DNA of 64,000 nucleotides from Poseidonia sp. (GTDB lineage: Archaea > Thermoplasmatota > Poseidoniia > Poseidoniales > Poseidoniaceae), in assembly GCA_049412325.1 (NCBI GenBank), contig JBMSEL010000006.1, positions 3,458-67,457 on the forward strand, read 5' to 3'. The notes below the pieces were generated by a model, which made no database searches, was not told the DNA's origin, and was given only the letters and a program-made list of their open reading frames with translations. The first letter of the stretch is position 1. Each line of letters begins with the position of its first letter. The position numbers and the translations under genes are program-made. Below are positions 1,128 through 24,075 of this stretch, piece by piece.

Positions 1128-1234
1128 ATCGCAAAATTCCCCATGATTCTCTCTTAAGTAAAGAGGGACTGAGCCACATCGGTCTCGGTGGTAACCCGTT
1201 ATACCTAAAAGGGGTTCAGAAGTGGCCAACGACG

Positions 1235-1270: not shown

Positions 1271-4200
1271 ATGGATGAACAAATGGATACGAAGGCGAAT
1301 CAGCCAAGTGCCGCAATGGGGTTGCTGCTCGCACCCTTGGCCGTGCTGCTCGCTCTTGCCACTACCCGAGTCGTGGGCATTGAATACGACTTGACGTTGA
1401 ACAACATGATGCCGATGCTGGTCGTCGCCATCGCAAGCATGCTGGCCGTTGCGCCACGCTTGGTTCTGGCTTCGCGACCCAACCTGTCCTCCACCACCGT
1501 TTCCCTCGGCGTGTTGGTGTTGGCCTTGGTCGGCGCCGAAGTGCTCTACATCGTGGCCGATGTCGACGCGTTGGCTGCGCTCATGTTTGCGCTCATCGTC
1601 GTGATCGGTTCGAACTTCGACCTTCGAGGTCGCCACGAATGGGTGACCGCCATGGCCTTTTCCGCTGTCGGATTTTGGCTGGCGATGGCGGCGGCTGGCG
1701 ATGCTTATGCAGCCTTGCCCTCCACCTATTCGATGGAAAGCGGTCAATTGGTTTCGACCATCAACCTCGAGCGTCAAGCCACCGCTTACGTCTTCTTTGC
1801 TTACTGGACGATGTCCACCGCTGCCGGTCTCCTTGCCGGCGTCCTTGCCCGTGGCACGCTCAACCCTGCTGGCTCCGAAGGTTGGTTTTCCTTCCTCGGT
1901 CAAACCAGCGGCTACAACCGTGCTGCGCTGCCGTTGATGGTGGCCTTTGGTGTGTGGGTCCTTGCCTTTGCCGGTTCGCTCTGGCATTTCAACAGCGTTG
2001 AGGTCTTCAATCAACTCGGCATCACCACCGAAGCCGGATACCACGGCTATGTTGGCTACTGGAGTGCCTTCCTGACCGGTGTGGTGGCACTCATTGTTGC
2101 AGGGATGGTCGCCGAGCGCTGGTACACCCGTGCGATGCTCGTCGCCTCGATGTGGACGCTCTACCAAGTTGCGGCTTGGTTCGAAGCTGGCATTTGGTAC
2201 ACCGAAGACCTCGACGGTACATGGGGCGCCTTGATCTGGCTCGCCATCACGTTCTTCATCGGTGTTGGAATTTATTCTCTCGGCAACCACGAGCGCTACG
2301 GTGGCTGGGCCAACCTTGGCGAGCACGAGCCCTCTCAGGCACGTCTCTTCCTCAGGGCTCATGGCGCCAGTATGATGGTCGGTTTGGCCTTCCTCGTCGG
2401 CTTGGCCATTCGTGTTCAGTGGTATGCTGTACCGTCAATGAACGCCTTTGGCACCGGCAACTGGGACATGACCGGTGGTTCCGACCCTTGGTACATGAAG
2501 CGAGTCGTCGACTACATCCTCGCCAACAACGCCCACCTTGTGATGGATGCTGACCGGTCCTACCCCCTCGGTGGAATCAACCCGCGTCCTCCACTCTTCT
2601 CGTGGTCCATGGCCATCGGGGCCATGGTGCTCGAGCCGTTCCTCAGCACACCTGAGGACGCCGTTTGGTGGAGCATGCTGGCCCTGCCAGCCGTGTACGG
2701 TGCTTTGACCGTGTTCCCCATCGCCTCCATGGCCAAGGATCAGTTTGGCAAGGGCGCTGGTGTCCTCGCCGCTTGGCTCATCGCTTTCATGCCGGCTCAC
2801 GTGACCCACTCGACGTGGGCTCTGGCTGACCACGATGCGTTTGTGATGCTGTTCCTTTCTGTCGGTTTCATGTATTGGCTACGTGCGGTCAAGTACGCTG
2901 GTTCGGCTCGAATTACCAAGACGACTTCGCCCCACCCAATGTCCTTTGTTCGTGCTTTCAACGACGTCGCTGCGCATCGTCAGGCCGCCATGGCTAACGC
3001 AGCCTTGGCTGGTGTTGCCTTCGGCATCGTGGCCCTTGGTTGGAAAGGGTTCGTCGTCGGGCCGTCCATCCTCTTCTTGGCCTACGCCTTGCAAGTGGCC
3101 CTGAACATGTTCCGTCGCCGTGATTCCACCTCGCTGAGCGTGATGTTCCTCGTCATGTTGACCACGACGTTCTTGATGGCCATTCCGTTCTACGCCCACC
3201 CACAACTCGACTTGGTGCTGGACGGTACCGGTCTGCAGCCCTTCTTGTTCATCTTTGTCTTCACGATTGCCATCGCCTTCGTGACGACCGGGTTCCGCGA
3301 CAAGCCCTGGCTGCTGGTGCTCGGTACGCTTGGCGGTGTTGCCCTGGTGTTCTTCCTCTTGCTCTACGTGCTCAAGACCCTCAACTTATCCGACGCCTGG
3401 GACGTGTTGTTCACTGGAGGTGGCTACTTTACCAAGACCAAGATTTTCGGTACTGTTGCTGAAGCAAATGCTCCAAACCGAGCCCAACTCTTTGCGTCGT
3501 TTGGACCCATCACCTTCCTGCTCGCCCTCATCATGGGAGGCGGCCTGCTGTGGCGAGGTCTTCGCCAGCGCAACGCTACCGCTTTGGTGTTCGGTGTTTG
3601 GGTCTTCACTGCCACGTTCATGGCTTGGAACGCTGCTCGTTTCATGTTCAACGCCACGCCCATCATGGCCATCCTCGGTGCCGCAGGCATTGTCGCCTTG
3701 TGGCAGTGGGCCAACTGGAGCGGCTTGGTTCGCTCGTGGAAGAAATATGGAATTCGCACGCCAGCAGACCGCATTTCCGGTGCACGGAAGGCCGTTTGGC
3801 GCTCGCCCCAATTCTCGGCCGTCTTCCTCGTGATGATCATGATTTTCGGTCAGCAAGCCACCTACGGTCTTGATTCGGCCATTCCCGGTACCTCGAACCA
3901 GGAATCGGAAATTGACGAGCGCATCTACAACATCGTTCCCGATATTCTCCGGTTTGACGGCCTTGGCTTCTCCGTTCTCGACAGCAGCACCTACGACGGC
4001 CGCTGGTACCTCGGAAGCTTCGGTTCATCGTTCAACGATAACGGTTGGAACGCTGCTTACGACTGGCTGGCCAATCAGGACGCCGACATGGGGTATTCTC
4101 ACAAGCCGGCCTTTGTCTCATGGTGGGATTATGGTTTCCAAGCCATGAGCACCGGTGACCACCCCTCGGTTTCAGACAACTTCCAGACCGGTATCCCGGC

Positions 4201-7200
4201 CACAGGAAACATGTTGCTCGCCCGCAACCAAGATGACTTGACGGCCATGTTCATTTGGCAACTGGCCGAGGGTGATCGGGTCTATGCGACCGAAGGCACG
4301 GACCATCAACTGACCCCGGCGTTCGCTGGTGCTGTTCAGAAGTACCTCAACGATGACCAGTGGTCTGACTTTGCGACTTTGCAGTTGAACTTTGGAGAGG
4401 AAATGGTTCCGTTCATCGAAGAGCGCTCATTCAGTGTCCTGAAGACCAACCGAGATGTTGTGATGGCCGAGGGTTACCTCCACACCGCTGGCGTTTTCAG
4501 CGGTGAGAAGGTCTACAAGATCTACAAGGATCAAGTCGCCATCCCGTGCACCGACGCTGTGTCCACGAGTTGTGTTGGTGATGCATGGAGTTCCATGGAC
4601 CAAGCCGACATCACCTTCAACAACAACATCCGAACCTCCGAGGAGACGGTCGAAAGCCGTACGCACATCATTATCGGAGACTACTGGTACACTGCAGACC
4701 TGCTTGACGAATACCTCTCGGTTTCAACGTCCATCCACCGGCACAACGCCCGTCTGGCCCTGGTGACGCAGTTGCTCACCGCTGCCTTTGACGCCCACCC
4801 CACCGCTACCATCCACGACCTCTACAACGACATCATCAACATGGAAAACTTGTACAGAGTACAAAACTACGAAGGCGCTCCTGGAGAAACGATCACCCGA
4901 AACCACGAAATCCGATACTTTGCGATCGATGACCGCCTCTACCCACGCGCTGGCCGCTACACGGCGGACGCCAACTACAACCGTGGACAACCCATGGGCA
5001 TTTTTGGTGCACCAACCATCCTCTCGGGCCAGGACATTGGCACCTACATGGACGAAGTGTACGAAACGGTCCGTGGCGACTTCCAAGACGAAATGACTCG
5101 CGAGGAAGTTGACGAAGCCATGCAGAAGGACTTCCTCAACCAGCAAGCCGGTGCTGACATCGACCTGCTGCAGATTGAGGATGTTCGTGTGGACCACAAC
5201 CCCGCCTTCTTCGACACCATGGTTGCCCGAACTTATGTCGGCTATGGCGCTTCAACGCTCGGCCTCAACGCTGGTTCCAGCAACCCACAACCATCGCAGC
5301 ATTTCGGTCAGTCCGGTTCTCCCGGGACCATCATGACCAATGCTCTGCCGTTGCCGGGTGCCATGATGAACCACTACGTTATTGCTAACTGGTACAGCGA
5401 ATCGCCTGAGGACCAGATTCAGTCGACCAACACCTTGGTCAAGATTCTGAAGTACTACCCCGGTGCAGAGATGACCGGTCAAGTCACGATGAGCGACAAC
5501 GGCGAGGGCCTTCCTGGTGTTCGATTGTTGATCGAGCGTGATGCCTTTTCCGGCGAAACAGGCGAGGACCTTGACGAGGACACGTACTGGGTCCCTATCG
5601 GCTTTGTTGACGCCGACGACGACGGACGCTACAGCTTCCTCGCTCCAGCCGGTAAGATTCGTGTCACGGCCTTCGCAGGTGTCTTTGACGCCAGTGCCGC
5701 ACGGGACAACATCCGAGATGGTTCCTATGGTGAGCGCCTCAGCGATATCCTGACCGAAACCAATGATGACCGTCAAATCAACGAAATCACGGCCATCCTC
5801 GGTCAAGTCGCCAACATGACCTGGTTAGGCGAGTCCCTCACCAACGTCACCGCTGACGAAGCAAACCGAGATGTTGCCATGGCCAGTACGGTGGACATCG
5901 CTGTCAAGAGCAGTGGTGTTTCCGGTACGGTCTCGTGGACCGGTGATGAAGCCTTCAACGGCGACCCCATCTCCGAAACGACCTTCATCTTGCGTAACAT
6001 TTGGTCCATGACCGACAACTACACCGTTGAAACCACGAGCGGCTCCTTTACCTCTGATGAATCCCGCATCCTCCAAGGAACGGGTGAAGCCACCTTGGTG
6101 GAAGAAGGTTCCTTTGACAGCGAAGGGATTGCCCTCGCCAGCAACTTCATCGGAAACTTCACCAGAGACATTGGCAATGAGCGAACATTCTTTGCCAATG
6201 GAACCTGGTCTGGCAACGGTGTCATCGAAGCTTCGTGGGTTGAACCCAGCGATGTGGTCAACTGTGAATTCGACAACGATTCCAACGCCGTGATGCCTAC
6301 CAACGAAACGTTCTGTCTGATCGACGACAGTGGTGACCTCCCCACCTACCGCCTTGAGGGGTCCGTTGACGCCATGGGCACCTTCACTTCAGAGGGCACC
6401 TCAACGTTGATTCGCAGCTACGGTGATGCCGAGGCTGGTCAAGGTGAAACCCTTGAGGGTGCTGGCCTGTTCGAAGGTACGGGTACCTTCAACGGCACGG
6501 GCCTGTTCATCGGTGTCGGTACCTTCTCCGGTCCCATGGTGGAACCCGGCTCGTTCTACAAGACTGGCCTCCTCCCGGGAACGTACAACATGATTGCCCA
6601 ACTGTCCAACGGGAAGGAGGTGCTCCTTCCAGACCCCGTTGAAATTGGTATCGAACCGAGTTATGACTTGGACATGACCATGCCGGGTGCTATCTTCAAG
6701 GACACCTTGAAGGACATGCACGGCGACGCACTCCCCAATCAGACGATTGAGTGGATTGACGTTCAACTCGGTGAGGACGCTGCTGTGTTGATCACGACCG
6801 ATGAGGAAGGAAACTTCTCCTACGGCCCGATTCCACCCGGTGAATACTACTACAGAGGCGATGTCGATGACGACGGTTGGTATGACTTCAACGAATCAAC
6901 CTTCGTCAATGATGATATCTCCAACATCACGTTGTCACTCAACGTCCCTGACACTGTTGACGTCACCCTCACGTTGGTCTCACCGGTTGACCCGTTGACC
7001 CAAGAGGCCTTGTTCGATGTGTCGAACCGCACCATCACGTTCCAGAACGAAGTTGAACTGTTGGAACCCATCAACGTGACCAGCGATGAGAACGGCGAAA
7101 TTTATGCTGAACTCTTGTTCGGTGTTTGGGACATTCGCGACGATGAGAACCCCGAGTTCGTGCTCTTCGACCAAATTGAACTCGAGCCGGGCACGGAAGA

Positions 7201-10200
7201 TCTGATTCAAGATGTGACCTACGCTCAAGCTGCTTACATCAACGGTTCCATGCGAAACTACCCCGGCGTTACCGTCGACGAGTGGAACACATGGGACGAT
7301 GAAACACCCGAAGAAAACCGTGAACAGACCACTCAACCTGCCACAGGCCTGACGGTGAACTTTGTTTCCGACGACCTTGCGTTCTCCGCTGTGACCAATA
7401 TCACTGGACACTTCTCCGTCAGGGTTCCGTCCGGTTTCACCTATCACATGACGACAGAAAGTGTTGTCACCAACCGTGGATACGGTGCCTTGGTGGCGGT
7501 TGAAACCGGCGTCGACGCCGATTTGGGCATGCTCTACATCGAGCCAACCAGTTTGGTGAACGGCGTTGTCCATCTTTACGACAACACCACACGTTGGGAC
7601 TCCTCGTTCCCGCTCTGGGAAGCACCCGAAGTCGTCGCCACCAACGCTGCCGGTTTGATGTGGACCACCACCACGAACGAACTTGGCGACTTTGCGTTTG
7701 ACCTGCCCAACGGTGTATGGACCATTTCGCTCACCGATGAACGATTGAATGCCACGGCGATTGAAGACTTGGCGGTGAACCGATCCAGCACGGAAAGCAT
7801 CTCCACCATGCTGGTCATTGCACACCCCGAGGCCGTTGATGTTGAGATGCATGTGTACCTCAACTCCGCTGAGGACGGCACCTTCGAGAACGGCACAGCC
7901 TCCACACCTGCCTTCACGCTGAAGCCCATTGCCGAGAACCGTGATCCAATTTACTACACGGCCGACGACTACAGCGAACCGGGCATCATCACCGTTTCCT
8001 TGACCCCTGGTGGGTACGACGTGATGTTCAACCGAACGGCTGCTTCCGATGAAAATGCTACCGATTACGACTTGGTTGGTGAGTCCTTCTTTGATGCGAT
8101 TCGCATCGGCCTTGACGCCGTGGATGAACCTTACGACGTGGCCCTCAAGAACACATACTTGGTGTCTGGGACCCTGTTTAACACCACGGACGATGGCATC
8201 GCGAACGACTTCCTGTTGTACAACGAGGCAGACGAAAAGTGGTTCAACATCGGTTCGGACGAAAACGGAAGCTTTGCAGCCTATGTTCCAGCAGGCGAGT
8301 GGCTCATCATCGTCGCTCCGTTCAGTAATGGTGACCACACCGAGACTCTACGACAACCATTGACGGTTGATGCCGATTCAGTTCGTACCGGTCTTGAGTT
8401 GACAACCAGCATAAGCGTCGAGGTTTCGATGCAACTCCTTGAGGCTGTCACGGAAACCGCCTTGAGCGACATGACGGTCACCGCTGTGAGCCACGATGGT
8501 TTTGGCAACATCACCTTTGAGCGAACCGATGCAGAGGGCAACGCCTCAGAATTGATCATGCCGGGTACATGGAGTTTCTACTTCAACCGAACCATTGGCA
8601 CAAAGTCTTGGTTCATGGACACCAGCGACAGTCCGTTCAACACGGAGGCCGCTGACGAGAACCATACGCTCGTCCTCGACCCTGTCTATGCCACGCTGGA
8701 GGTTGAAATCGGCGGCAAGGTCTACTGGGATCTTGACAACAACAGTGCCCCGAGTTTGGGTGAGGGTTTGCCTGAAATGAACGTCACCATCGTTGGAAAC
8801 AACAACTCTGAGGTCTCAACCACCGTTACCACCGACGATGAAGGTGTTTGGCGTGTCTTTGTGCCCATCCGTGATGTGTACAACGTGACCGTTGAGAAGG
8901 AAGGATTTGAGACGGTCTACTACGCAACTGAGGACCAGAATGGATACACCGTTCACGACAGTCCTGATTCCACGGACATTGAAGTCACGGCCGGCCTCGT
9001 TGAAGTTGAAGGAACGGTAACCGACCAGCTGGATGCTGACCGTTTGGTGGATGCCACCATCGTGTTGTACCCTGTTGCGGGTATTGAGCGAGATGCTGTC
9101 ACAGTGAGCGGCACCATGAACGACACCACACTGGAATGGTCCACCAGCGTCCAACCCGGTGATTGGGTCGTGGTGGTCTCCCAGAACAACCCTGGTCCCA
9201 ACGGTGGCGGCGTTGCCATCGGTCTGCTCGAGGCCTCTGTCGCCAACGGTGGAAACATCAGTTTGGTGATGGCCCTTGGCGGCTACGTTGACCTGACGAC
9301 GTCTTGGACTGACATTGATCAAAACGAGCACCACGCTGGTTCGGACGATGCAGGCTCGGACATGATCGAGGGCACCGTTGAACTGGAGGTTTCGTTTGAC
9401 GGCCAATCGTGGATGGTTGATGTTCCTGCGAGCGGTGAACTGCGAGATTTGTTCCCCGAGGGCAGCGTGTCCTTTGATGGTGAATTCATGACGGTTCAGC
9501 ATGCAACGGCGGTTGAGATGGAGTACTACGGTGGCCAAACCACCACCATCACGGCCGATTCGACCATTGCAGCCACGCTTCAATTCAACCGACGTGTGAA
9601 CTCTGCCCTTGACATCACGTTCAACGATGCGTCCCTCAGCGATGGGACCTTGTTGAACGCAGCCGATGGGGAGATTGAAGCCGTGGTGTCGTCCACCAAC
9701 GGGTCAGTGTACTCGACCATCACCTTTGATTACGACATCGCCTACAATGGCACTGAAATCATGGATGTCTTCACCGTTGAAGGCGAAATAGGTCTGGCCC
9801 AAGACTCCGATTTGTGGACGGTCCAATTCTGGAACGCCACCAGCGAGGCCTACGAAGACTCTGTCAGCGTTTCACTTGGTATTGGTGATGCTGATACCGA
9901 TGCTATCTTGAGCACTTCAGTGAAGGTCCAGATCACGCTACCAGAAGTGGCGGAGGCTTGGCACTTGGCCAACGGCCATCGCATGACCATGCGCCTCCAA
10001 ACAGATTTGGGCGAATCATCCCAAGCTTCGGTGAAGGTGTTCGTGCCTCAATCGTTTGACTTCACGGTGTCGGATGCGACCGAAGAACTGGGCATGTCAG
10101 CGTTGGTTGAACGCCAATTCTCCTTTGCCTTGACCAACAACGGCAACGGGCAAGACTCCTTCACGATTGAACTGCTTGAGAGCGGTGTTCCTGAAGGTTG

Positions 10201-10828
10201 GTCGGTTACGCCGATGATGTCCACTCTGACGCTGAACAAGGACGAAACCCGAACACAACAGTTCACTGTCTTCGCACCTGCGAGTTATTCTGACGAAGAT
10301 GGTGATTTCCCACTCACCGTTTACGTCAACAGCCAGGACGAAAACGTTGCACGTGAAGAGGTTGAAGTCACCATCAAGAAGGCTACCATCAAATTGACCA
10401 TTGACGAGGACCGTATCTCGACGGAATCTGACCAGATCGCTGGCCAAGCCGGGGCCGTTCGTGTTGTCGTGGTGAACGAGGGTCTTCTCGATGCACCGTC
10501 GGTCATTGTCTACCTGACGCCACCCGGTGGTGATGAACTCCAGCAATCCGTTGCCGTACCAGCTGGCGGCGAGGGCATGGCCGTGTTTGATGGCCTGACC
10601 TTTAGCCAAGGAAGTCAGCGGTTTGACTACCGAGTCGAGGTGGCAGGTGCTGAGGCTGAGAGCGTAGATTCTGTTCCCGATCCTGGTGATTTCAGCATTG
10701 AGTACAACCCTGAGTCGACAACAGACGGTGAATCCGCTTGGATGACCCTGCTCATCGCTCTGCTGGCCATTCTCGTGCTGTACGGCGGTGTTCGCACCGC
10801 TCGTAGCCGTGGCGGTTCCAAGTTCTGA
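1271..10828 (+). CDS. aglB: Giant oligosaccharyltransferase (AglB/STT3) with extra N-terminal membrane domain, long beta-sandwich-repeat tail and C-terminal TM anchor
   Basis: STT3 motifs GSDPWY (~aa 405), ADHD (DxD), TVAEA (TIxE-like) and WWDYG (nt 4121-4135, aa 951) followed by SDNF. Many TM helices in aa 1-~870. Acidic tail has repeated TD(E/D)xGx(F/W)-type motifs of carboxypeptidase-regulatory/CnaB-like domains. Ends in a hydrophobic helix plus RTARSRGGSKF. Confidence 0.9.
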   Translation: MDEQMDTKANQPSAAMGLLLAPLAVLLALATTRVVGIEYDLTLNNMMPMLVVAIASMLAVAPRLVLASRPNLSSTTVSLGVLVLALVGAEVLYIVADVDALAALMFALIVVIGSNFDLRGRHEWVTAMAFSAVGFWLAMAAAGDAYAALPSTYSMESGQLVSTINLERQATAYVFFAYWTMSTAAGLLAGVLARGTLNPAGSEGWFSFLGQTSGYNRAALPLMVAFGVWVLAFAGSLWHFNSVEVFNQLGITTEAGYHGYVGYWSAFLTGVVALIVAGMVAERWYTRAMLVASMWTLYQVAAWFEAGIWYTEDLDGTWGALIWLAITFFIGVGIYSLGNHERYGGWANLGEHEPSQARLFLRAHGASMMVGLAFLVGLAIRVQWYAVPSMNAFGTGNWDMTGGSDPWYMKRVVDYILANNAHLVMDADRSYPLGGINPRPPLFSWSMAIGAMVLEPFLSTPEDAVWWSMLALPAVYGALTVFPIASMAKDQFGKGAGVLAAWLIAFMPAHVTHSTWALADHDAFVMLFLSVGFMYWLRAVKYAGSARITKTTSPHPMSFVRAFNDVAAHRQAAMANAALAGVAFGIVALGWKGFVVGPSILFLAYALQVALNMFRRRDSTSLSVMFLVMLTTTFLMAIPFYAHPQLDLVLDGTGLQPFLFIFVFTIAIAFVTTGFRDKPWLLVLGTLGGVALVFFLLLYVLKTLNLSDAWDVLFTGGGYFTKTKIFGTVAEANAPNRAQLFASFGPITFLLALIMGGGLLWRGLRQRNATALVFGVWVFTATFMAWNAARFMFNATPIMAILGAAGIVALWQWANWSGLVRSWKKYGIRTPADRISGARKAVWRSPQFSAVFLVMIMIFGQQATYGLDSAIPGTSNQESEIDERIYNIVPDILRFDGLGFSVLDSSTYDGRWYLGSFGSSFNDNGWNAAYDWLANQDADMGYSHKPAFVSWWDYGFQAMSTGDHPSVSDNFQTGIPATGNMLLARNQDDLTAMFIWQLAEGDRVYATEGTDHQLTPAFAGAVQKYLNDDQWSDFATLQLNFGEEMVPFIEERSFSVLKTNRDVVMAEGYLHTAGVFSGEKVYKIYKDQVAIPCTDAVSTSCVGDAWSSMDQADITFNNNIRTSEETVESRTHIIIGDYWYTADLLDEYLSVSTSIHRHNARLALVTQLLTAAFDAHPTATIHDLYNDIINMENLYRVQNYEGAPGETITRNHEIRYFAIDDRLYPRAGRYTADANYNRGQPMGIFGAPTILSGQDIGTYMDEVYETVRGDFQDEMTREEVDEAMQKDFLNQQAGADIDLLQIEDVRVDHNPAFFDTMVARTYVGYGASTLGLNAGSSNPQPSQHFGQSGSPGTIMTNALPLPGAMMNHYVIANWYSESPEDQIQSTNTLVKILKYYPGAEMTGQVTMSDNGEGLPGVRLLIERDAFSGETGEDLDEDTYWVPIGFVDADDDGRYSFLAPAGKIRVTAFAGVFDASAARDNIRDGSYGERLSDILTETNDDRQINEITAILGQVANMTWLGESLTNVTADEANRDVAMASTVDIAVKSSGVSGTVSWTGDEAFNGDPISETTFILRNIWSMTDNYTVETTSGSFTSDESRILQGTGEATLVEEGSFDSEGIALASNFIGNFTRDIGNERTFFANGTWSGNGVIEASWVEPSDVVNCEFDNDSNAVMPTNETFCLIDDSGDLPTYRLEGSVDAMGTFTSEGTSTLIRSYGDAEAGQGETLEGAGLFEGTGTFNGTGLFIGVGTFSGPMVEPGSFYKTGLLPGTYNMIAQLSNGKEVLLPDPVEIGIEPSYDLDMTMPGAIFKDTLKDMHGDALPNQTIEWIDVQLGEDAAVLITTDEEGNFSYGPIPPGEYYYRGDVDDDGWYDFNESTFVNDDISNITLSLNVPDTVDVTLTLVSPVDPLTQEALFDVSNRTITFQNEVELLEPINVTSDENGEIYAELLFGVWDIRDDENPEFVLFDQIELEPGTEDLIQDVTYAQAAYINGSMRNYPGVTVDEWNTWDDETPEENREQTTQPATGLTVNFVSDDLAFSAVTNITGHFSVRVPSGFTYHMTTESVVTNRGYGALVAVETGVDADLGMLYIEPTSLVNGVVHLYDNTTRWDSSFPLWEAPEVVATNAAGLMWTTTTNELGDFAFDLPNGVWTISLTDERLNATAIEDLAVNRSSTESISTMLVIAHPEAVDVEMHVYLNSAEDGTFENGTASTPAFTLKPIAENRDPIYYTADDYSEPGIITVSLTPGGYDVMFNRTAASDENATDYDLVGESFFDAIRIGLDAVDEPYDVALKNTYLVSGTLFNTTDDGIANDFLLYNEADEKWFNIGSDENGSFAAYVPAGEWLIIVAPFSNGDHTETLRQPLTVDADSVRTGLELTTSISVEVSMQLLEAVTETALSDMTVTAVSHDGFGNITFERTDAEGNASELIMPGTWSFYFNRTIGTKSWFMDTSDSPFNTEAADENHTLVLDPVYATLEVEIGGKVYWDLDNNSAPSLGEGLPEMNVTIVGNNNSEVSTTVTTDDEGVWRVFVPIRDVYNVTVEKEGFETVYYATEDQNGYTVHDSPDSTDIEVTAGLVEVEGTVTDQLDADRLVDATIVLYPVAGIERDAVTVSGTMNDTTLEWSTSVQPGDWVVVVSQNNPGPNGGGVAIGLLEASVANGGNISLVMALGGYVDLTTSWTDIDQNEHHAGSDDAGSDMIEGTVELEVSFDGQSWMVDVPASGELRDLFPEGSVSFDGEFMTVQHATAVEMEYYGGQTTTITADSTIAATLQFNRRVNSALDITFNDASLSDGTLLNAADGEIEAVVSSTNGSVYSTITFDYDIAYNGTEIMDVFTVEGEIGLAQDSDLWTVQFWNATSEAYEDSVSVSLGIGDADTDAILSTSVKVQITLPEVAEAWHLANGHRMTMRLQTDLGESSQASVKVFVPQSFDFTVSDATEELGMSALVERQFSFALTNNGNGQDSFTIELLESGVPEGWSVTPMMSTLTLNKDETRTQQFTVFAPASYSDEDGDFPLTVYVNSQDENVAREEVEVTIKKATIKLTIDEDRISTESDQIAGQAGAVRVVVVNEGLLDAPSVIVYLTPPGGDELQQSVAVPAGGEGMAVFDGLTFSQGSQRFDYRVEVAGAEAESVDSVPDPGDFSIEYNPESTTDGESAWMTLLIALLAILVLYGGVRTARSRGGSKF

Positions 10829-10892: not shown

Positions 10893-12101
10893 ATGGAAGG
10901 TCTCCGTGACGTTGAGTACCTTCCAGAGCCTTCTGACCGACGCATCGTTTCTGCGGTGGACCCGACGGTGATTGGCTTTCAGGATCAGTGGCGATCCGAA
11001 ACCATGGGTTGGGCTCCCTTGACCGTCGAGCCAGTTGTTCGGCATTCACGGCGTCGTTTCTCCATCTCTGGCGTGGTGGTGTTGGCGCTCTTGATTTCGG
11101 CCAGTGTGTTGATGTGGCAAAACCAATGGTTGGTGGTTGAACTCCCCCAGCCTACATCTGAGTGGGCGTTTGAGCAAACCGATTTGCGTGAAATTCAGGC
11201 GGCAGGCCTCTCTGGTGAAGGGGTGCGAGTCTGCATGGTTGACACCGGTGTTGATGCTCAACACGATGCCTTTTCGACCACTGAATTCACGTTCAAGGAT
11301 TTGATTGGTGCATCGAAGCTACCGGTTGACTACGGTGCGGTTGCTCACGGGACGCTGATGTCTGGCTTGCTTCTCTCAAACGATTCTAACCAACGCGGCG
11401 CAGCACCGAATGTTTCCTTTGCGATGGTGGCTGCCTTGAGCGATAACGGTGACGGGGAAAACACCGGATTGGATTCCGATGTTGCGGATGCCATTCGGTG
11501 GTGTCAGTTTGAATTCCAAGCCGACATCATCTCCCTCTCTTTGGGCGGGACGGAGGAATCCGACGCCACGGAGGGTGGTTCCTCTGCAGCCACTCGCCAA
11601 GCGACGGATGCGGGTATCTACGTGGTGGCTGCAGCCGGGAACGACGGTCTCGATGATGATGGTGACGTCGCTTCACCAGGTAGCGTGGATTTGGCCATTT
11701 CCGTTGGTGCAACCACCCGTGAGGGAACCGTATGGGCCAATTCCTCAACCGGGTCTTCAACCGACAGAAACGGTGAGGTTCGAGCCCACCCAAACATGAA
11801 GCCAGAAGTGGTGGCGCCGGGTGAGCGGATCATCAGCACGGGTGAGGACAACCTGTGGTACTCCAGCAGCGGTTCTTCCGATGCTACGGTCTTTGTTTCG
11901 GGGGCGTTGGCGTTGATCCTTGAGGATCAGCCTCGATTGAAGCCTCAACCGGGTGGTAACGCCTCGTGCCTTGTCGAGGTGAAACTGGCGCTTCTGGAAT
12001 CATTGGGGCCGGGCGATGGAGCGCATGATCTTCGCAACGGTTATGGCCTCCTCGATGCCTCGTCGTGGCTCAATGAAGCCCGCAAGATACCGAGCTGTTG
12101 A
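10893..12101 (+). CDS. Membrane-anchored S8 (subtilisin-like) serine peptidase
   Basis: VDTG, HGT, AAGND, KPEVVAPG and nucleophile region SGSSDAT. N-terminal TM helix. Start moved from the TTG at 10842 to the ATG at 10893. Confidence 0.85.
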   Translation: MEGLRDVEYLPEPSDRRIVSAVDPTVIGFQDQWRSETMGWAPLTVEPVVRHSRRRFSISGVVVLALLISASVLMWQNQWLVVELPQPTSEWAFEQTDLREIQAAGLSGEGVRVCMVDTGVDAQHDAFSTTEFTFKDLIGASKLPVDYGAVAHGTLMSGLLLSNDSNQRGAAPNVSFAMVAALSDNGDGENTGLDSDVADAIRWCQFEFQADIISLSLGGTEESDATEGGSSAATRQATDAGIYVVAAAGNDGLDDDGDVASPGSVDLAISVGATTREGTVWANSSTGSSTDRNGEVRAHPNMKPEVVAPGERIISTGEDNLWYSSSGSSDATVFVSGALALILEDQPRLKPQPGGNASCLVEVKLALLESLGPGDGAHDLRNGYGLLDASSWLNEARKIPSC

Positions 12102-12287
12102 GGCTTTTTCGCCTCTTTCTCGACGTAGAATACACCGCATTCATTGCGAAATATATCTGTTTGTCGTCGTTTTCCGATGTTTTTCTACCGTTTTTCGGCA
12201 GTCCTAATGATATTCTAAAGTGGAATTGATACATTTAGGGCGGCAAATGAGGCGCAGTATTATATTCGTGGCGTTCATGGACAGAGC

Positions 12288-12293
12288 AGGTGA
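12288..12293 (+). promoter_or_regulatory. Shine-Dalgarno-like AGGTGA
   Basis: AGGTGA ends 8 nt upstream of the ATG at 12301. The AT-rich intergenic region 12102-12270 contains TATTATAT at about 12258. Confidence 0.5.
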
Positions 12294-12300
12294 ATCGCCG

Positions 12301-15300
12301 ATGTCTCAAAAAAACCGAACAAAATCCGTATCGCTCGTGATGCTTTACATGATGTCCCTCATGTTGGCCATGGTGAGCGTTCCCTCGGCCATGGCCGTGA
12401 ACGAAACCACACAGGGCACCGTGACCGGTACCGAGACGTGGTCGGGCACCATGAACCTCCAGGACGATGTCACGGTGGCTGAGGGTTCCAAACTCATCAT
12501 CAATGCAGGTACGACCGTCAACATCCCGCACGGCAAGTTCATCGATGTTCAGGGCGCAATCTGCGTTGGCGATTCATCCTGTGGCGCAAGCGCTGGTTCG
12601 GCTTCCTCACAAGCCCGTTTCATCTGGTCCCTCCCAACGGATTACACCAAGACTGGTCGCTGTTTGAACACGCAGAGTAACGTTCTCAACAACCCCGATG
12701 CTGCGTGCGGTTCTGGCTTGATCATTCGAGACACCATCGACCAGTCCATCACCTCCATCAACTACGCTCACTTTGAGAATGCCTACGGTTACCCTATCTA
12801 CGTCGCTTCCCTTCAAGCCGTGCAGTATGGGGCATTGGTGTTTGACGGTTCAACCACCACCGCTCGTGGTCTTACGTTCACCGACATCAACACCTCGAAC
12901 GTCATTGCGGTGGATTATGCGGCCCCACTCCTTGAGGACTCAACCTTCGAGTTGGGTATTGACGGACAGGGTTACGACGCTGCCGCCGTGCGTGCGTACG
13001 ATGCAGGTGCGGGGATCCTCTCAACCTTCCGCGTCAAGAACTCCGTCTTCACTGGAAACGACGCTGATTGTGGTCAACAAGGCGGTGGCCGTGCCGTCCT
13101 CTACATCGAGAATTCTTACATCGATATGGATAACCTCGACATCAAGGACAACAGTTATGGGATTTTGATGAAATCCAGTTCTGGTAGTTTCACCAACTCC
13201 AAGGTCGATGTCAAGTGTAACGCCATTGACACCAACTCGCTGAAGACCACCGGCAACATTGAACACACGCTGGAGGTCACCGACAACGACATCACCACGG
13301 CCGAGGGTGCGGGCTTGACCGCTTACGACGGTGCCAAGGTGTACGCAGAAGGCAACATCATTTCCGGTGCGAGTGAAGGTTCAGGCGTCGGTATTCGCAG
13401 TTCAGTTGTTGAGCTTCACCGCAACACCATCGGTCCCATCGGTGGCTGGAACGGCTTGTGGATTTACGGAACCTCTGATGTCATTGCCGAAAACAACACC
13501 ATCCAGGACACGGGCAAGGAACCTGTGCTCATCGGTGAGTACCACTACCAAGACCAGGGTTGGCAGGTGCCAGCGCCCTCTGCGGCTCGCCTGTACCTGG
13601 CCAACAACGTGATTTCCAACAACTCTGGAACCTGCAACTCCCAAATGTACGGTGGCGATTTCCCCTGTCCCGCCGTTCACGTCTTCCGTTCCTCGGCCTC
13701 CATCCTCGACAACACCATTTCGGGCAACGCTGGCGATATCATCCGTGCCAAGGGTTCACTCATTAACGTCCAACGCAACACGGCAGATTCTCAAGATGGA
13801 TTCGCCGGCAACGTAACCCACCATGACGACAACTACGGCAACAAGTACGGTTCCGTGGCATACTTCTCTGGCAACTCATGGTCCGGTGTTTCGCAAGTCT
13901 ACAATGTGACCGAATCCCGTGTGACGGTCCAGTCTGAACAAATTCCATCCCCTGGCAACGGTGAGCTCTACCCAGTGAACATCCGTTGGTTGGGTGCCGA
14001 ATGTCCGTTCGTTCAGGACGAGTGTCTGCAACTTCCCGGTACCGTGGCTTTGCCACCGATCGGCATGCCGATGGCTCTCGAACTGGTCGAGAATGCAACC
14101 GTGTTCTCCTTTGCCGATCTTCAGAACTTTGATTCCTCAATGATTCACGTGCAAAACCAGAACACCGCTTGGGGCTCCCAAGTTCGAGAAGGTGAACTCG
14201 TTCGCTACCAAGTCAAGGCCAAGAACTCCAACGTTGAAGGCGCCACGGTCATCATCAAGGATTCCACTGGCCTCCCTCTTTACGATTTGACCACCGACGC
14301 CTTCGGCTTCACGCCTGAGGTTTCCCTGCCCTCGGATTTCCTCCTTGACCGAAACTGGAACCACGTGGTTGGCGACAAGAACGCTGCCATTCCCGGCACC
14401 AACGACGGCACCGGTCAACCCATCGTGGTCGACGAAGACTCGTGTGCAGACGGCATTGACAACGATGGCGACACGTTTGTCGACAAAGATGACACAGACT
14501 GCATTAACGGACGAGAGCGCCCGTTCTACACCGTTGAGGCGTTCAAGTTCGGCAGCGGTCGTGATGACTTCTCATACGTGCTTTCGGGCCCGATTGATGA
14601 CATCATCAACCTTGAGAACTTGCGCCCCGGCGTCAGCGTGACTGAGCCTGACGGCTACTCTTTCGCCACCACGGTTCGCATCACAGGCCAGGCATGGGAC
14701 GGCGCGAAGTGGCCCTATGCCAACGACAACACAGCACAACAAGCACAGTTTGGTTTGGTGAGCCGCGTTGAGATTCAACCCCCCGGTTCTTCGGATTGGT
14801 TCTATGCTTCAGATGCCTCCGGTTCAAGCGGCGACATCACCATGGAAAACCATCCGTTCAAGGACTGGGTCTACGAATGGGATGGCGCTGCTCATCCCGA
14901 GGGCGAAGGCGACATCACCTTCCGTATCCGTTCCTACGATGGTTTGGATTACTCTCCTGTTGAAGTCCGCCAGTACAAGCTCAACCTCGTTGCGCCTTCG
15001 CTCTTGGTCGATGTTCCAACAGCAGGAAGCGTCCACCAAACAGGCAAGGTGATGTTCCAAGGCACGGCCTCCGATCCCTATCAAGGCACAGCAGGAAGCG
15101 ATGTCAAGCAGATTTGGTTCTCCATCTCTGGACCCGACGGCTTTGCTCAGCAGTTCTTTATTCAAGGTTCAACAAGTTGGTCCTACGAATGGAACGTGGC
15201 TGAGTTGCCCTCTGGCGACTACACGGCCACGGTTTGGGCTGCTGACAGCGACTTCTGCATCGGTGAAGTCGTTGAAGCCGATGGCTGCGTGGCAGAAACC

Positions 15301-16704
15301 CGAACCATCACCATCAACAACGACAACATTCCACCCAACCTCCAACTCTCTTGGATTGGCGCTGAGGACCAATCTTCCGGCGGCATTGACGGTGATACGG
15401 TTCGTGCATCCACCGAAACGAAGATCATCGGTGTGGCTCGAGATATCGGTGGATTCGTGACCCGTGTGGAAATTGAAATCACCGATTTGGCGAACGGTAT
15501 CGTGCTCAATGACGGTCCGCTGCCGGTCACCGCCTTTGCCCAAGATGGCTCTTGGGTCGCCAACTGGGACACGTCCAAGTTGGTTCACGACAGCGTCTAT
15601 TCGGTCACCGTGCGTGCTTACGACGGTGATGATTACTCACAAGACGTGGTTTGGCGAATGACCATCAACAACCCACTCGATGCCGAGAACATCGATCCGG
15701 TGTTTAACGAAACAGGTTGGGTCGGTACATGGACGATCTTCTGTGACCAGAATTCCAACTCATTCGACCGCTGCGGCGGCGGTATTTCGTTTGACCTCGC
15801 TGAGTTCTTCAACGACCCTGATGGAACCGGTTCACCAGGTGATGACCTTGAGTTCTATGTCTACGATGATGACACGACGATTGAGGATGATTTCTACGAC
15901 GACTTCATCACCATCACGCCGTTTGGTGTGCTGACCTACGACCCAATGTCGTACATGGCCCAAACCACCAGCAGCATCCCCGATTGGTCGCTCAATGGCG
16001 TCGTTGTTTACGCCCAGGACGACCAAGAATCCAAGGCGTACTCGTTGAAAGTCAACTTCCTGGTCCGTGCTGTAGCCTTCACCGTTGAGCGAACAGATAC
16101 CGGCGACATCACCGTAGCCGACCCGGCTGAGTTCCAAGGAGAAGGTCTTCCAGGCAGCCTTGTCATCGCTCGCTTCGCCGAAGGAAACGCTAAGTTGAAT
16201 TCGACTCGTGTGCTTTCAGATGGGTCGTGGAACATGCAACTCACGGCTGGCCAGCTCAGCGGCATCGAGGGCTCATCTGATGTCATCTTCGAAATGGACG
16301 GTCAAATCTTCAAGTTTGCCGGACAGACCGAGAACGCCGAGTTTGCTGTTACTGTATCCAGCGGCGACGACGGTGGTTCAGGCATGGTGGGTATCATTCT
16401 CATCGTCCTGGCCGTCCTCGTTCTGTTGGGTGCAGGCGCCTTCTTCTTCATCGAATTCGAAGAAATGCCGGACGAAGATGAGTTGACGGGGGATGATTCC
16501 CCTGAGGAAGAAGATCCGTATGCATGGGCCAAGGCCAAGCAGACTCCAGCCATACCACAACAGGATGCAGTGGTGCCTGCCCAGGCAGCCCCTGTTGCAC
16601 AGGAAACCGCCGCACCGGCCGCATCCCAGCATCCTGGTTGGTTGTGGGACCAAGCATCCAACCAGTGGGTGCCTGACCCGAACTACCAACAGCCGCCACA
16701 ATGA
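12301..16704 (+). CDS. Secreted, TM-anchored surface protein: right-handed parallel beta-helix plus Ig-like domains and a Trp-rich cytoplasmic tail
   Basis: Signal peptide (…VPSAMA). Beta-helix repeats (NTI/NNTI/NNVI/DNTI). CADGIDNDGDTFVDKDDTDC motif. Ig-like units (GTASD…W.YEW…Y.V.VRAYDG). TM helix near the C-terminus, then an acidic/Pro-Ala linker and HPGWLWDQASNQWVPDP. Confidence 0.8.
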   Translation: MSQKNRTKSVSLVMLYMMSLMLAMVSVPSAMAVNETTQGTVTGTETWSGTMNLQDDVTVAEGSKLIINAGTTVNIPHGKFIDVQGAICVGDSSCGASAGSASSQARFIWSLPTDYTKTGRCLNTQSNVLNNPDAACGSGLIIRDTIDQSITSINYAHFENAYGYPIYVASLQAVQYGALVFDGSTTTARGLTFTDINTSNVIAVDYAAPLLEDSTFELGIDGQGYDAAAVRAYDAGAGILSTFRVKNSVFTGNDADCGQQGGGRAVLYIENSYIDMDNLDIKDNSYGILMKSSSGSFTNSKVDVKCNAIDTNSLKTTGNIEHTLEVTDNDITTAEGAGLTAYDGAKVYAEGNIISGASEGSGVGIRSSVVELHRNTIGPIGGWNGLWIYGTSDVIAENNTIQDTGKEPVLIGEYHYQDQGWQVPAPSAARLYLANNVISNNSGTCNSQMYGGDFPCPAVHVFRSSASILDNTISGNAGDIIRAKGSLINVQRNTADSQDGFAGNVTHHDDNYGNKYGSVAYFSGNSWSGVSQVYNVTESRVTVQSEQIPSPGNGELYPVNIRWLGAECPFVQDECLQLPGTVALPPIGMPMALELVENATVFSFADLQNFDSSMIHVQNQNTAWGSQVREGELVRYQVKAKNSNVEGATVIIKDSTGLPLYDLTTDAFGFTPEVSLPSDFLLDRNWNHVVGDKNAAIPGTNDGTGQPIVVDEDSCADGIDNDGDTFVDKDDTDCINGRERPFYTVEAFKFGSGRDDFSYVLSGPIDDIINLENLRPGVSVTEPDGYSFATTVRITGQAWDGAKWPYANDNTAQQAQFGLVSRVEIQPPGSSDWFYASDASGSSGDITMENHPFKDWVYEWDGAAHPEGEGDITFRIRSYDGLDYSPVEVRQYKLNLVAPSLLVDVPTAGSVHQTGKVMFQGTASDPYQGTAGSDVKQIWFSISGPDGFAQQFFIQGSTSWSYEWNVAELPSGDYTATVWAADSDFCIGEVVEADGCVAETRTITINNDNIPPNLQLSWIGAEDQSSGGIDGDTVRASTETKIIGVARDIGGFVTRVEIEITDLANGIVLNDGPLPVTAFAQDGSWVANWDTSKLVHDSVYSVTVRAYDGDDYSQDVVWRMTINNPLDAENIDPVFNETGWVGTWTIFCDQNSNSFDRCGGGISFDLAEFFNDPDGTGSPGDDLEFYVYDDDTTIEDDFYDDFITITPFGVLTYDPMSYMAQTTSSIPDWSLNGVVVYAQDDQESKAYSLKVNFLVRAVAFTVERTDTGDITVADPAEFQGEGLPGSLVIARFAEGNAKLNSTRVLSDGSWNMQLTAGQLSGIEGSSDVIFEMDGQIFKFAGQTENAEFAVTVSSGDDGGSGMVGIILIVLAVLVLLGAGAFFFIEFEEMPDEDELTGDDSPEEEDPYAWAKAKQTPAIPQQDAVVPAQAAPVAQETAAPAASQHPGWLWDQASNQWVPDPNYQQPPQ

Positions 16705-19250: not shown

Positions 19251-19730
19251 TCATTGGACCGCCTGCGGCCTGTCAAGTGAAAGGAAGGTCGTCCCATCAT
19301 CATGCACGACCCAAAGCCGTTCCACACCGGCCAGGGGTATTCGACCTTCATGAGTTCCCGCACCGGTCCCCGACAGCGAAACCGTCGTGTCAAGGGGTCC
19401 TCCTTCGTCGATCAGCACGAGTTCTGTTTCGAGGAGTTCCAGCCAAAACAGGGACTCATCGGCTTCTGTCGGTCGCCAAGCGATCTCCTCGGCATACGAT
19501 ACATTTCCGCCGAAACGGCTGGCTTCATCGGCTCGTTCAACAGCAGCAGCAATGTCGTCCATGTTGGCCTGGATTGCTTCCTCGTTCCATCGCAGGCGGG
19601 TGTTGGTCTCAATGTCCCACGCCCACACACTGAACATGCTCATGAGGAGCACACCCAACAGGAAGGTGAAGATGTAGCCCAATTCAGTGGCCGCTGCGCG
19701 GGTATCGTGAACCAAGCGTTGTCGCTTCAC
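19251..19730 (-). CDS. Small archaeal type IV pilin-like protein (class III signal peptide)
   Basis: MKRQRLVHDTRA/AATELGYIFTFLLGVLL: basic leader, RA cleavage-type site, hydrophobic helix. Start overlaps the upstream stop by 4 nt. Confidence 0.7.
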   Translation of the reverse strand: MKRQRLVHDTRAAATELGYIFTFLLGVLLMSMFSVWAWDIETNTRLRWNEEAIQANMDDIAAAVERADEASRFGGNVSYAEEIAWRPTEADESLFWLELLETELVLIDEGGPLDTTVSLSGTGAGTHEGRIPLAGVERLWVVHDDGTTFLSLDRPQAVQ

Positions 19731-23075: not shown

Positions 23076-23888
23076 TCAGTTGGCTGTGTTGTTGGTCAGC
23101 GAGACGGTCTCGTCTTCTGAACCGATATAATGAGAAAAATCTGGTCCATTTTGAGCCGAAATTCGCAAGTCGCCCGTGAAGACCTCGTCGATATAATACA
23201 ACACGGTCGATTCGGCCAGGTGGGGGGCGTTGTTTTTCTCACTCAGGTGTGTGAGGGTAATGCTTCTGGTCGTCTCCGTGCACACTTCGGCCAAAAAGCG
23301 TCCTGTTTGCTCATTCGAAAGGTGACCGCCCCGTCCTGAAATCCGATCCTTCAGTGAGTAAGGGTAGGGGCCGTACATCAGTTTGTTGTGGTCGTAGTTG
23401 GCTTCGATGGAGATGTGCTCGCAACCCCGAACGTGTGCGACGAGTTCATCGGTCCAGGACCCCAAATCGGTGATGATCGCCGCCCGTTCGCCACCATGGC
23501 TGGCCACAAAGGCTACGTTGTCGGAACCGGCGTGCGGAACCGGGACGGGAAGAATCGACAAATCGTCCCCAACACGAACCAAATCAAGGGCCTCAAAATA
23601 GGTGGTCAACTCCGGGACCAAATCCAATTCCAAGGCGGTGCGTTCGTTGGCGAGCACGGGGATGCTCCACTTGGTTTGGACCACCTTGGCTCCTCCGCCG
23701 TGGTCGCCATGGTGATGGCTGATGAAGACGCAGTCGATATCTTCTGGTGTCAGTTGGAGGCGTGCGAGTCGTTTGGCGAGTTGAGTCCCGCTGAATCCTT
23801 GGTCGATGAGGACCTTGACCTGGGGTGTTTCAAGCAGGGTCGAGTTGCCTCGGCTGCCTGTTCCCAAATGCGTGATGGTCATGGTCAT
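23076..23888 (-). CDS. MBL-fold metallo-hydrolase (YycJ/WalJ-like)
   Basis: LGTGSRGN, HHHGDH (HxHxDH), VPH, ITDLG, EANYD, GHLSN, THLSEKNN. Confidence 0.88.
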   Translation of the reverse strand: MTMTITHLGTGSRGNSTLLETPQVKVLIDQGFSGTQLAKRLARLQLTPEDIDCVFISHHHGDHGGGAKVVQTKWSIPVLANERTALELDLVPELTTYFEALDLVRVGDDLSILPVPVPHAGSDNVAFVASHGGERAAIITDLGSWTDELVAHVRGCEHISIEANYDHNKLMYGPYPYSLKDRISGRGGHLSNEQTGRFLAEVCTETTRSITLTHLSEKNNAPHLAESTVLYYIDEVFTGDLRISAQNGPDFSHYIGSEDETVSLTNNTAN

Positions 23889-23898
23889 GCGAACATCC

Positions 23899-23951: not shown

Positions 23952-24075
23952 CAGATTCTTCGGGATAAACGGTCATCGCAACGGGCATTTGTATGAACAA
24001 TGTTCCATCACCCTCATAAGCAATCTTGCAGGAATAAAAAACGAGCGAGGCGGAGGCTTTGCAAACGGTGATTCC

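Follow-up and report, generated by a model that had tools for sequence, protein, structure and literature searches.

An AglB oligosaccharyltransferase of 3185 residues in Poseidoniales, with an added N-terminal membrane module, a sequon-rich tail and a predicted C-terminal membrane anchor

A single gene in a 64,000-nucleotide (nt) stretch of DNA from Poseidonia sp. (contig JBMSEL010000006.1 of assembly GCA_049412325.1, positions 3,458 to 67,457 of the forward strand; the whole stretch is called the window here) encodes an oligosaccharyltransferase (OST) of 3185 residues (aa). We think it likely that this gene is the AglB of Poseidoniales, held at both ends, with a glycosylated tail that was inherited and an N-terminal module that is new. 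As a membrane enzyme, AglB transfers a preassembled glycan from dolichol phosphate, its carrier, to the asparagine of N-x-S/T in extracellular proteins. Of the enzymes of archaeal N-glycosylation, AglB alone is universal, to our knowledge, and the AglBs studied so far are shorter than ~1000 aa. Poseidoniales, the Marine Group II archaea, are among the most abundant planktonic archaea; we know of no Poseidoniales culture or cell-surface description.

The gene is a single ATG-started frame of 3185 codons at 1271..10828 on the plus strand, without an internal stop, and base composition showed no break over this interval. Its parts are listed below, with the basis for each in parentheses; AfAglB-L is the AglB-L protein of Archaeoglobus fulgidus.

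1271..10828, plus strand: whole gene, AglB/STT3 with an N-terminal membrane module and a C-terminal anchored tail (open reading frame [ORF] list, translation)
1271..2335, plus strand: N-terminal module, aa 1-355, ten predicted transmembrane helices, family-specific (AlphaFold2)
2336..3850, plus strand: STT3 membrane domain, aa 356-860, with two DXD motifs and TIXE (Pfam, TIGR04154, AfAglB-L alignment)
2477..2485, plus strand: first DXD-type motif, G403-S404-D405 (aligned with AfAglB-L)
2828..2836, plus strand: second DXD motif, D520-H521-D522 (aligned with AfAglB-L)
3452..3463, plus strand: TIXE motif, T728-V-A-E731 (placed by eye)
3851..5440, plus strand: predicted extracellular catalytic globular domain, aa 861-1390, sequon-free (WWDYG, family profile)
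4121-4135, plus strand: WWDYG motif, residues 951-955 (invariant)
5441..10720, plus strand: predicted extracellular tail, aa 1391-3150, acidic divergent beta-sandwich domains, 37 sequons (Pfam, AlphaFold2, Foldseek)
10721..10825, plus strand: putative C-terminal anchor, aa 3151-3185, with hydrophobic helix 3156-3174, basic stub and last Phe, codon 10823..10825 (hydropathy, alignment)
10826-10828, plus strand: stop codon of the AglB gene

Searching at similar length with a limit of E <= 0.001 returned 317 relatives, and 120 were listed. Lengths of 3125-3227 aa (median, 3185) were found for 113 of these, with identities down to 48%, and the remaining 7 were partial. Twenty-five relatives, with identity to the window protein as low as 34%, were aligned; the alignment was collinear, and the gap fraction was <=0.05 in every 100-aa block. 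Conservation, measured as the mean share of sequences with a column's commonest residue, was highest in the STT3 and globular parts (0.70-0.81) and lower yet clear in the tail (0.46-0.71). At least 820 of 826 pattern matches, from one genome per species, encoded relatives, and 54 loci were kept from the best 80 of the 820. Stop-free frames of >=3100 codons were present at 39 of these loci; 13 ended inside the AglB gene at a contig end, and 2 (L006 and L016) were interrupted. The window was 93 to 94% identical to the nearest loci (L001-L004). An earlier note on this DNA, made by a reader who had the letters and their ORFs, had proposed a genuine, intact and very long OST and had named misassembly as the doubt. 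The constant length of the relatives and the unbroken frames bear out the proposal and not the doubt.

The STT3 identity of the core was clear. Pfam STT3 (PF02516, CAZy GT66) matched residues 376-663 with 47.1 bits against a cut-off of 24.5, and TIGR04154, which describes archaeosortase A system-associated archaeal STT3, matched residues 369-987 (E 1.8e-49). The best solved relative was AfAglB-L (Protein Data Bank [PDB] entry 3waj), with an E value of 1.3e-6 when the single sequence was the query and 6.2e-13 with the family profile; the alignments to its STT3 membrane domain covered AfAglB-L residues 5-294 and 38-444. Hydropathy gave ~12 to 13 segments within 356-860; catalytic membrane domains of the STT3 class have thirteen transmembrane helices. 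In the globular domain, the family profile matched the AglB C-terminal domains 3vgp and 3vu0 at ~E 3e-6, and a match to AglB_core-like was weak (16.8 bits versus 27). BLASTP alignments to relatives began at residue 367-368 and the profile alignment at 351, placing the start of the core at about residue 356. The earlier reading had the core beginning at ~aa 380 after an extra multi-helix membrane domain; the extra block is there, and the start lies upstream of that point.

The catalytic motifs were then compared with those of AfAglB-L, with the roles of the DXD, TIXE and WWDYG residues taken from the accessible part of PMC8342417. In OSTs of the STT3/AglB/PglB class, external loop 1 carries the first DXD-type motif, a metal ligand, loop 2 carries the second, and loop 5 carries TIXE (archaea and bacteria) or SVSE, while DK or MI forms the Ser/Thr pocket. 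Residues 403-405 (GSD) align with G-N-D47 of AfAglB-L, so that D405 matches D47, and D520-H521-D522 aligns with D161-H162-H163. WWDYG at 951-955 aligns with AfAglB-L 550-554. TVAE at 728-731 was read as TIXE by eye, the HMMER alignment to AfAglB-L being off by a few residues there. D405, D520, H521, D522, T728, E731 and W951-G955 were invariant in 25/25 aligned relatives. The initial statement that all STT3 catalytic motifs are intact holds for GSD, DHD, TVAE and WWDYG; the DK/MI motif is taken up below. By sequence, residues ~356-1390 are an ordinary STT3 module whose predicted metal-binding and sequon-binding residues are intact.

Downstream of the core, the tail (1391-3150, ~1760 aa) is acidic, with 17.3% D+E and 3.9% K+R. 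CarboxypepD_reg (PF13620) matched it in two stretches with 64.3 bits against a cut-off of 32.3. Under the Pfam cut-off, matches were to the beta-sandwich families NOMO1-like, SpaA, SdrD_B and NPCBM_assoc, and segment-wise scans added weak CarboxypepD_reg, NPCBM_assoc and FixG_C matches. Residues 2581-3150 gave weak matches to CarboxypepD_reg, NPCBM_assoc/NEW3, FixG_C and choice-of-anchor-T. An AlphaFold2 model of 1381-2580 had a predicted local distance difference test score (pLDDT) of 85.7; strands take up 619 of its 1200 residues and helices take up 64. About 12 domains were counted in these 1200 aa, and ~17 to 18 are estimated for the whole tail. With the model as query, Foldseek gave 246 PDB matches at E <= 0.001. 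Beta-sandwich domains arranged like beads on a string are common to all of them; they are pilins, the SdrD and Cna B repeats, alpha-2-macroglobulins and large adhesins. We considered a regular tandem repeat and dropped it, the domains being divergent and few of them linked by profile. When tail windows were compared with tail profiles, just 9 off-diagonal matches reached a probability of >= 70%, and these link 1555-1743, 1767-1991 and 2235-2532. The ~1750 aa of acidic beta-sandwich repeats described earlier are thus acidic throughout and beta-sandwich where modelled, and their domains are divergent rather than repeated.

Two local features of the tail stood out in the 25-relative alignment. 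An invariant D1864-x-D1866-x-D1868-G1869 (6860..6877) looks like a calcium site by eye. An invariant cysteine pair (C1665/C1682) falls within ~1599-1753, where the chain is rich in glycine and the strands are unusually long; this region had no Pfam match, and an ESM Atlas query with 1590-1760 gave no usable match.

The protein ends in a hydrophobic stretch (3156-3174, hydropathy 2.31) followed by the stub RTARSRGGSKF, as expected of the second, C-terminal anchor that had been suggested. All 25 aligned relatives end in a helix, a basic stub and KF, RF or PF, with F3185 invariant, and most giant-family members carry Y-G-G within the last helix. The invariant terminal Phe may be a family-specific contact or a sorting signal. 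A C-terminal sorting signal shared with other proteins was sought, and none of the 14 other window ORFs ends in helix, stub and Phe. A complex prediction of 3131-3185 against 1-870 scored 0.00 and speaks neither for nor against docking of the helix on the membrane region.

Sequons (N-x-S/T, x not P) were counted and compared with expectations from shuffled sequences. The whole protein has 42. Thirty-seven lie in the tail (1441-3150), where shuffles gave 16.1 +/- 3.5; 4 are in the STT3 membrane part and 1 is in the N-terminal block. The soluble catalytic domain (831-1440) has 0, versus 4.2 +/- 1.9 expected. These counts match the hand count of more than 30 in the tail and few in the catalytic domain. 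The tail excess was found in 25/25 relatives (31-64 seen versus 12-26 expected), and of the 33 sequon columns common to >=13 of the 25 relatives, 31 fall in the tail. N1525, N1741, N2262 and N2855 are examples of conserved sites. Summed over the 25 tails, sequons and control motifs were as follows.

N-x-S/T: seen 1136, expected 456.8, ratio 2.49 (mean z 7.3)
S/T-x-N (reversed): seen 469, expected 458.4, ratio 1.02
D-x-S/T: seen 725, expected 634.2, ratio 1.14
Q-x-S/T: seen 232, expected 212.9, ratio 1.09
N-x-T: seen 713, expected 236.6, ratio 3.01
N-x-S: seen 423, expected 220.2, ratio 1.92
N-P-S/T: seen 4, expected 16.6, ratio 0.24

Sequons are selected for in the tail, and the pattern is the one that selection for N-glycosylation would give. 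The tail is very probably N-glycosylated. The idea that the enzyme may glycosylate its own stalk gains from the 2.49-fold excess of sequons against 1.02-fold for the reversed motif insofar as glycosylation of the tail is strongly suggested; that the tail's own enzyme adds the glycans we infer. Sequon enrichment was also seen in three further window proteins with a predicted surface location (30 versus 15.2, 17 versus 6.8 and 9 versus 2.8).

The tail and its anchor are shared more widely in the phylum. P0269, a 1249-aa STT3 protein outside the giant family (31% identity), led to 152 relatives, most of them 2030-2186 aa long and consisting of STT3 and many CarboxypepD_reg-type domains. That search reached up to 2186 aa, and longer forms may exist outside the giant family. 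The long AglBs include those of Aciduliprofundum sp. MAR08-339 (2081 aa, on a 1.44-Mb contig), Cuniculiplasma sp. SKW3 (2111 aa) and a Methanomassiliicoccales archaeon (2168 aa), and many further entries are named Thermoplasmata archaeon. Eleven of 2030-2184 aa were examined individually. WWDYG stands at ~570-660 in these, versus 951 in the giant, so no added module precedes STT3. Sequon enrichment of the tail was found in 11/11 (e.g., 26 versus 13.2, 56 versus 27.3 and 42 versus 11.8), and a C-terminal hydrophobic helix was detected at the threshold used in 9/11; of the other two, P0338 has a weaker C-terminal hydrophobic stretch by eye and P0304 has none.

In BLASTP, residue 367-368 of the window protein pairs with residue 17-21 of the long AglBs, and core identity is 31-33%. 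The giant-family profile at 351-3043 is collinear with 3-2119 of the 2168-aa group (probability 100%, E 2e-188, 2037 columns). In an unrooted STT3-core tree of 40 rows, the 16 giant sequences fall on one side of a branch with a Shimodaira-Hasegawa-like approximate likelihood ratio test value of 100. Long Thermoplasmatota AglBs resemble the giant: their STT3 core is followed by a sequon-rich CarboxypepD_reg-like array and, close to the end, a CARDB/NEW3-like domain, and the chain closes with a C-terminal helix and a basic stub. They differ in starting directly with STT3 where the giant has its ten-helix module, in a tail of ~1000-1150 aa versus 1760 aa, and in variable C-terminal stubs that lack the giant's invariant final Phe. 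Because the layout is collinear, the fused, anchored, sequon-rich tail appears to be the common form of AglB across Thermoplasmatota. A tail fused to a second anchor is therefore not peculiar to this gene, as had first been supposed; it is shared by AglBs of ~2030-2186 aa, cultured genera included. As judged from these alignments, tail and anchor are inherited, and what is specific to Poseidoniales is the N-terminal module together with the ~650 aa by which the tail is longer.

The N-terminal module is absent from the ~2100-aa Thermoplasmatota relatives. An AlphaFold2 model of residues 1-375, built from a 32-sequence alignment, had a pLDDT of 82.0 and a predicted template modelling score (pTM) of 0.82 and contained ten helices (14-35, 43-68, 74-94, 100-118, 122-148, 164-193, 217-242, 263-281, 285-305 and 317-339). 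Hydropathy agrees, with ten helices preceding the first STT3 helix at 356-374. Since the number is even, the known STT3 topology is kept. The basic residues R119, R121, R194, R283, R287, R342 and R358 lie on loops predicted to be cytoplasmic, and the N-terminus of the module would accordingly be modelled inside the cell. The earlier proposal of a protein tethered at both ends fits the topology that we infer: ten helices before STT3, the C-terminal domain outside and the basic stub last.

No relative of the module outside this family was found. A HMMER scan with residues 1-370 over 1.84 billion representatives gave 58 matches, of which 8 were full-length family members (3146-3194 aa) and 5 were of 848-1992 aa (3 family pieces and 2 weak matches in many stretches). 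The other 45 were <=322 aa, each covering part of the module, and none of the 58 was a free-standing protein of ~350-400 aa spanning it. Pfam gave 0 families at E <= 10. Foldseek against the PDB gave 0 matches at E <= 0.001 (best E 0.19, template modelling scores [TM-scores] <=0.23), and the chains of the solved yeast and human OST complexes in that library did not match. The best ESM Atlas score was 0.83, without a family. In hhalign, the module matched the STT3 membrane domain with a probability of 0.3% and its two halves matched each other at 0.2%; no internal duplication was seen. A known glycan-lipid flippase or OST accessory subunit was considered as the identity of the module and rejected, there being no sequence or fold likeness in Pfam, the PDB or the Atlas. 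The fused accessory subunit first proposed for this block consequently found no support: the module is, as modelled, a confident fold without a known relative, unlike the STT3 membrane domain. In our view it would be a membrane partner particular to this lineage and packed against the enzyme. Predicted structures settle the fold class of both additions, module and tail. Relatives encoding the parts as separate genes, a doubt raised at the outset, were not found: the scan returned no free-standing module, and in distant relatives STT3 and tail form one protein (no query used the tail by itself).

Comparison with known systems sets the giant apart in its build. AfAglB-L (PDB 3WAJ, 5GMY and 7E9S) likewise has an STT3 membrane domain and a C-terminal globular domain, with the four motifs at aligned positions. 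Its PDB chain, however, is 875 aa against 3185 aa, it lacks the ten-helix module, the beta-sandwich tail and the second anchor, and its sequence likeness to the giant is weak, as the E values above indicate. Eukaryotic OST subunits (ribophorins/Ost1 and Swp1) have luminal beta-rich domains and a C-terminal anchor beside STT3, with extra helices packed on it. The likeness of these subunits to the giant is by analogy, no homology having been found, and the giant is one polypeptide; its tail matched pilins and adhesins in Foldseek, with no ribophorins among the top 50. Surface stalks of adhesins and pilins (the B. anthracis TIE protein 6FWV, SdrD/Cna B, RrgB, BcpA and SpaC), the MG domains of alpha-2-macroglobulin and NOMO-like domains share the fold class and the beads-on-a-string build of the tail. 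These proteins are anchored at one end and not fused to such an enzyme, whereas the giant's tail would be held at both; TM-scores between the tail and these structures are low (<=0.12 over the query), because only single domains superpose.

The gene order around AglB is kept: purD, AglB, an S8 subtilisin, a 1494-aa beta-helix/Big_7 protein and a STAND/TPR protein. Across the 54 loci, purD was present at 46, S8 at 43, beta-helix/Big_7 at 38 and STAND/TPR at 33; the 11 loci without S8 all end inside the AglB gene. The S8 protease consists of a ~55-aa stub, a single hydrophobic helix (56-74) and a catalytic domain with several sequons; from this layout, the stub should be cytoplasmic and the catalytic domain outside at the membrane. 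The 1494-aa protein, 49-97% identical across its loci, has hydrophobic helices at ~36 and ~1392 and a Pro/Gln/Trp-rich C-terminal stub. In the purD-AglB spacer, an A/T-rich TTATACCTAAAAGG at 1199..1212, 59-72 nt upstream of the AglB start codon, is by eye a possible archaeal promoter element. Other features of the window are as follows.

10893..12101, plus strand: membrane-anchored subtilisin-like S8 protease (Peptidase_S8, E 2.2e-33), 65 nt downstream of AglB
12220..16704, plus strand: 1494-aa right-handed beta-helix and Big_7 protein
19727..23043, minus strand: adjacent genes of 744 and 361 aa with N-terminal hydrophobic segments
23806..29826 and 29869..35310, plus strand: giant ORFs of 2006 and 1813 aa
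36962..38026, plus strand: pyroglutamyl peptidase (C15) and NUDIX hydrolase domains in one ORF
38615..39652: GT2 glycosyltransferase

The 361-aa gene has a weak match to DUF7289 (26.1 bits versus a cut-off of 27), which we take to be an archaeal pilin-like family; if so, 19727..23043 is possibly a surface-filament locus. The 2006- and 1813-aa ORFs gave almost no family matches apart from one weak TSP3/CglD-like repeat, and the former is enriched in sequons (30 versus 15.2 expected); both are probably surface proteins. A typical agl cluster was not found within the window.

By record title, the 54 loci belong to Poseidonia sp. (15), Candidatus Poseidoniales archaeon (13), Methanobacteriota archaeon (12), Candidatus Poseidoniaceae archaeon (5), uncultured euryarchaeote (4), Euryarchaeota archaeon (2), and Poseidonia alphae, Thermoplasmatota archaeon and Verrucomicrobiales bacterium (1 each); one partial database entry is named Thalassarchaeaceae. 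The locus titled Verrucomicrobiales bacterium (L013, NZEQ01000036.1) carries purD, giant AglB, S8, beta-helix and STAND genes with 74-89% identity to the window and is most likely a Poseidoniales contig in the wrong bin. In the metagenome-assembled genome (MAG) SAT1329 (PAWY01), the gene occurs on two contigs, each with purD upstream: one (L017) has the full gene at 84% and the other (L014) its first 720 residues at 88%, up to the contig end. The two copies may come from mixed strains in one bin and not from a true duplication.

How the protein would work can be sketched from its parts. The core would be an active AglB. The tail would lie outside the cell, with the enzyme holding one end and the last membrane helix the other, and would be clad in N-glycans added by its own active site or by neighbouring copies. 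The result would be a glycan-clad arch or rod on the surface, either part of the cell coat or a spacer that sets the distance of the active site from other layers. An envelope scaffold and a device for capturing giant substrates, both put forward in the earlier note, would be hypothetical roles of the tail. Activity of the core is the one step that rests on conserved residues; those involving the tail are drawn from fold, topology and sequon statistics. A wider version, in which AglB is both the enzyme and a main coat glycoprotein across Thermoplasmatota, forming a glycan-clad, doubly anchored arch that helps replace a wall or S-layer, and in which the module of Poseidoniales is a new kind of membrane unit that hands over the lipid-linked glycan, seems to us improbable. 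For the flipping or carrier-handling step of lipid-linked glycans, we know of no firmly identified protein in Archaea.

Several observations weigh against the picture of a Poseidoniales AglB held at both ends. The giant is known here from genes and models alone. Its TIGR04154 score of 168.9 bits is far under the cut-off of 450, so the gene is not filed under that subfamily; the PGF motif was absent from the AglB C-terminus when the translation was inspected. The stem of the giant family is long (1.89 changes per column), and together with the low score this means that the enzyme part has diverged a good deal. The DK/MI region lies beyond the alignments to solved structures and the motif was not located; an invariant D1002 is followed by x-x-Y, not x-x-K. 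No other STT3 gene is present within the window, the rest of the genomes not having been searched for a second AglB. The tail model covers 1381-2580, leaving 2581-3150 outside it, and because its pTM is 0.41, which does not fix the arrangement between domains, "arch" and "rod" are a picture rather than a result. Sequon asparagines in the model show a mild loop bias (18/32 in coil and 14/32 in strand).

Other explanations account for part of these data. The long stem, the low archaeal STT3 score and the missing DK/MI motif could mean that the enzyme is dead and the gene encodes a purely structural surface protein on an old STT3 anchor. This is very improbable: all alignable metal- and sequon-binding residues are invariant in the 25 relatives, down to 34% identity, and the catalytic parts are the best-conserved blocks (0.74-0.81). 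The other secreted window proteins are also enriched in sequons, so the cell needs an OST. That assembly or gene calling has joined separate genes is suggested by the many shorter database entries and the two interrupted loci, but those entries are incomplete, lying on short contigs or being flagged "partial," and of the 15 loci that lack a full frame, 13 break off within the gene where the contig stops. With 113 of the 120 listed relatives, from many assemblies, sharing the same length within ~3%, we give an artefact practically no weight.

The gene could also encode a polyprotein, its tail being cut off after synthesis, perhaps by the downstream S8 protease, to leave an AglB of ordinary size and a C-terminally anchored surface glycoprotein, coat or S-layer-like. 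The tail resembles surface adhesins and pilins, and the S8 gene is directly next on the same strand wherever the locus extends past AglB, with a topology that would put the protease outside at the membrane, where the tail is. However, purD is equally constant upstream, so fixed gene order in Poseidoniales need not mean shared function. Moreover, no cleavage motif was identified, and the junction (1301-1500) is among the best-conserved regions (0.71-0.77) and is modelled as a continuous fold. We consider cleavage unlikely. As for the module, a fused pathway partner (a flippase, or a protein for carrier recycling or hand-over) could feed the enzyme. Such a role would suit a conserved polytopic module fused ahead of the enzyme in 8/8 full-length representatives found, with E123, R194, G195, E282, W284 and R358 invariant at predicted helix ends, and fusions often join successive pathway steps. 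The module is nevertheless unlike any known transporter or flippase in the Pfam, PDB and repeat searches above, and other Thermoplasmatota AglBs work without it, which makes this role quite doubtful. An active, doubly held AglB with an inherited tail remains the reading that we prefer.

Full-text literature searches found no description of the length, tail or module, for the giant or for the ~2100-aa form, so the earlier note's doubt that the architecture is already characterised was not borne out; the broad AglB survey of Nikolayev et al. 2020 lay outside this search and may list lengths. The accessible parts of PMC9723583, PMC3750248, PMC5155288, PMC8342417 and PMC11407970 make no mention of length or fused parts. 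In PMC9723583, as far as its available files go, a Thalassarchaeaceae MAG gene at contig positions 27778-37315 (9538 nt) is annotated aglB/GT66 (supplementary file 3) and has a log2 change of 2.05 (adjusted p, 0.062) in field metatranscriptomes (file 5); the available main text calls the gene an oligosaccharyltransferase and leaves its size unmentioned. Database entries are labelled "STT3 domain-containing protein," "carboxypeptidase regulatory-like domain-containing protein" or "glycosyltransferase family 39 protein." What is known is AglB itself, with the sequences public under generic names; the lineage-specific fused parts are new.

The whole phylum appears to carry an AglB that is 2 to 3 times longer than those studied, with the enzyme welded to what is apparently its own substrate, and Poseidoniales have the longest form. 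The module, a confident fold adjoining a well-understood active site, is a tractable target in the search for a new function in glycan-lipid handling. Because shorter relatives occur in the cultured Aciduliprofundum and Cuniculiplasma, the role of the tail can be tested now. If the tail is a coat component, it would give a handle on the Poseidoniales surface through antibodies, glycoproteomics and cryo-tomography landmarks and would show in nature an enzyme that stays tethered to what it produces.

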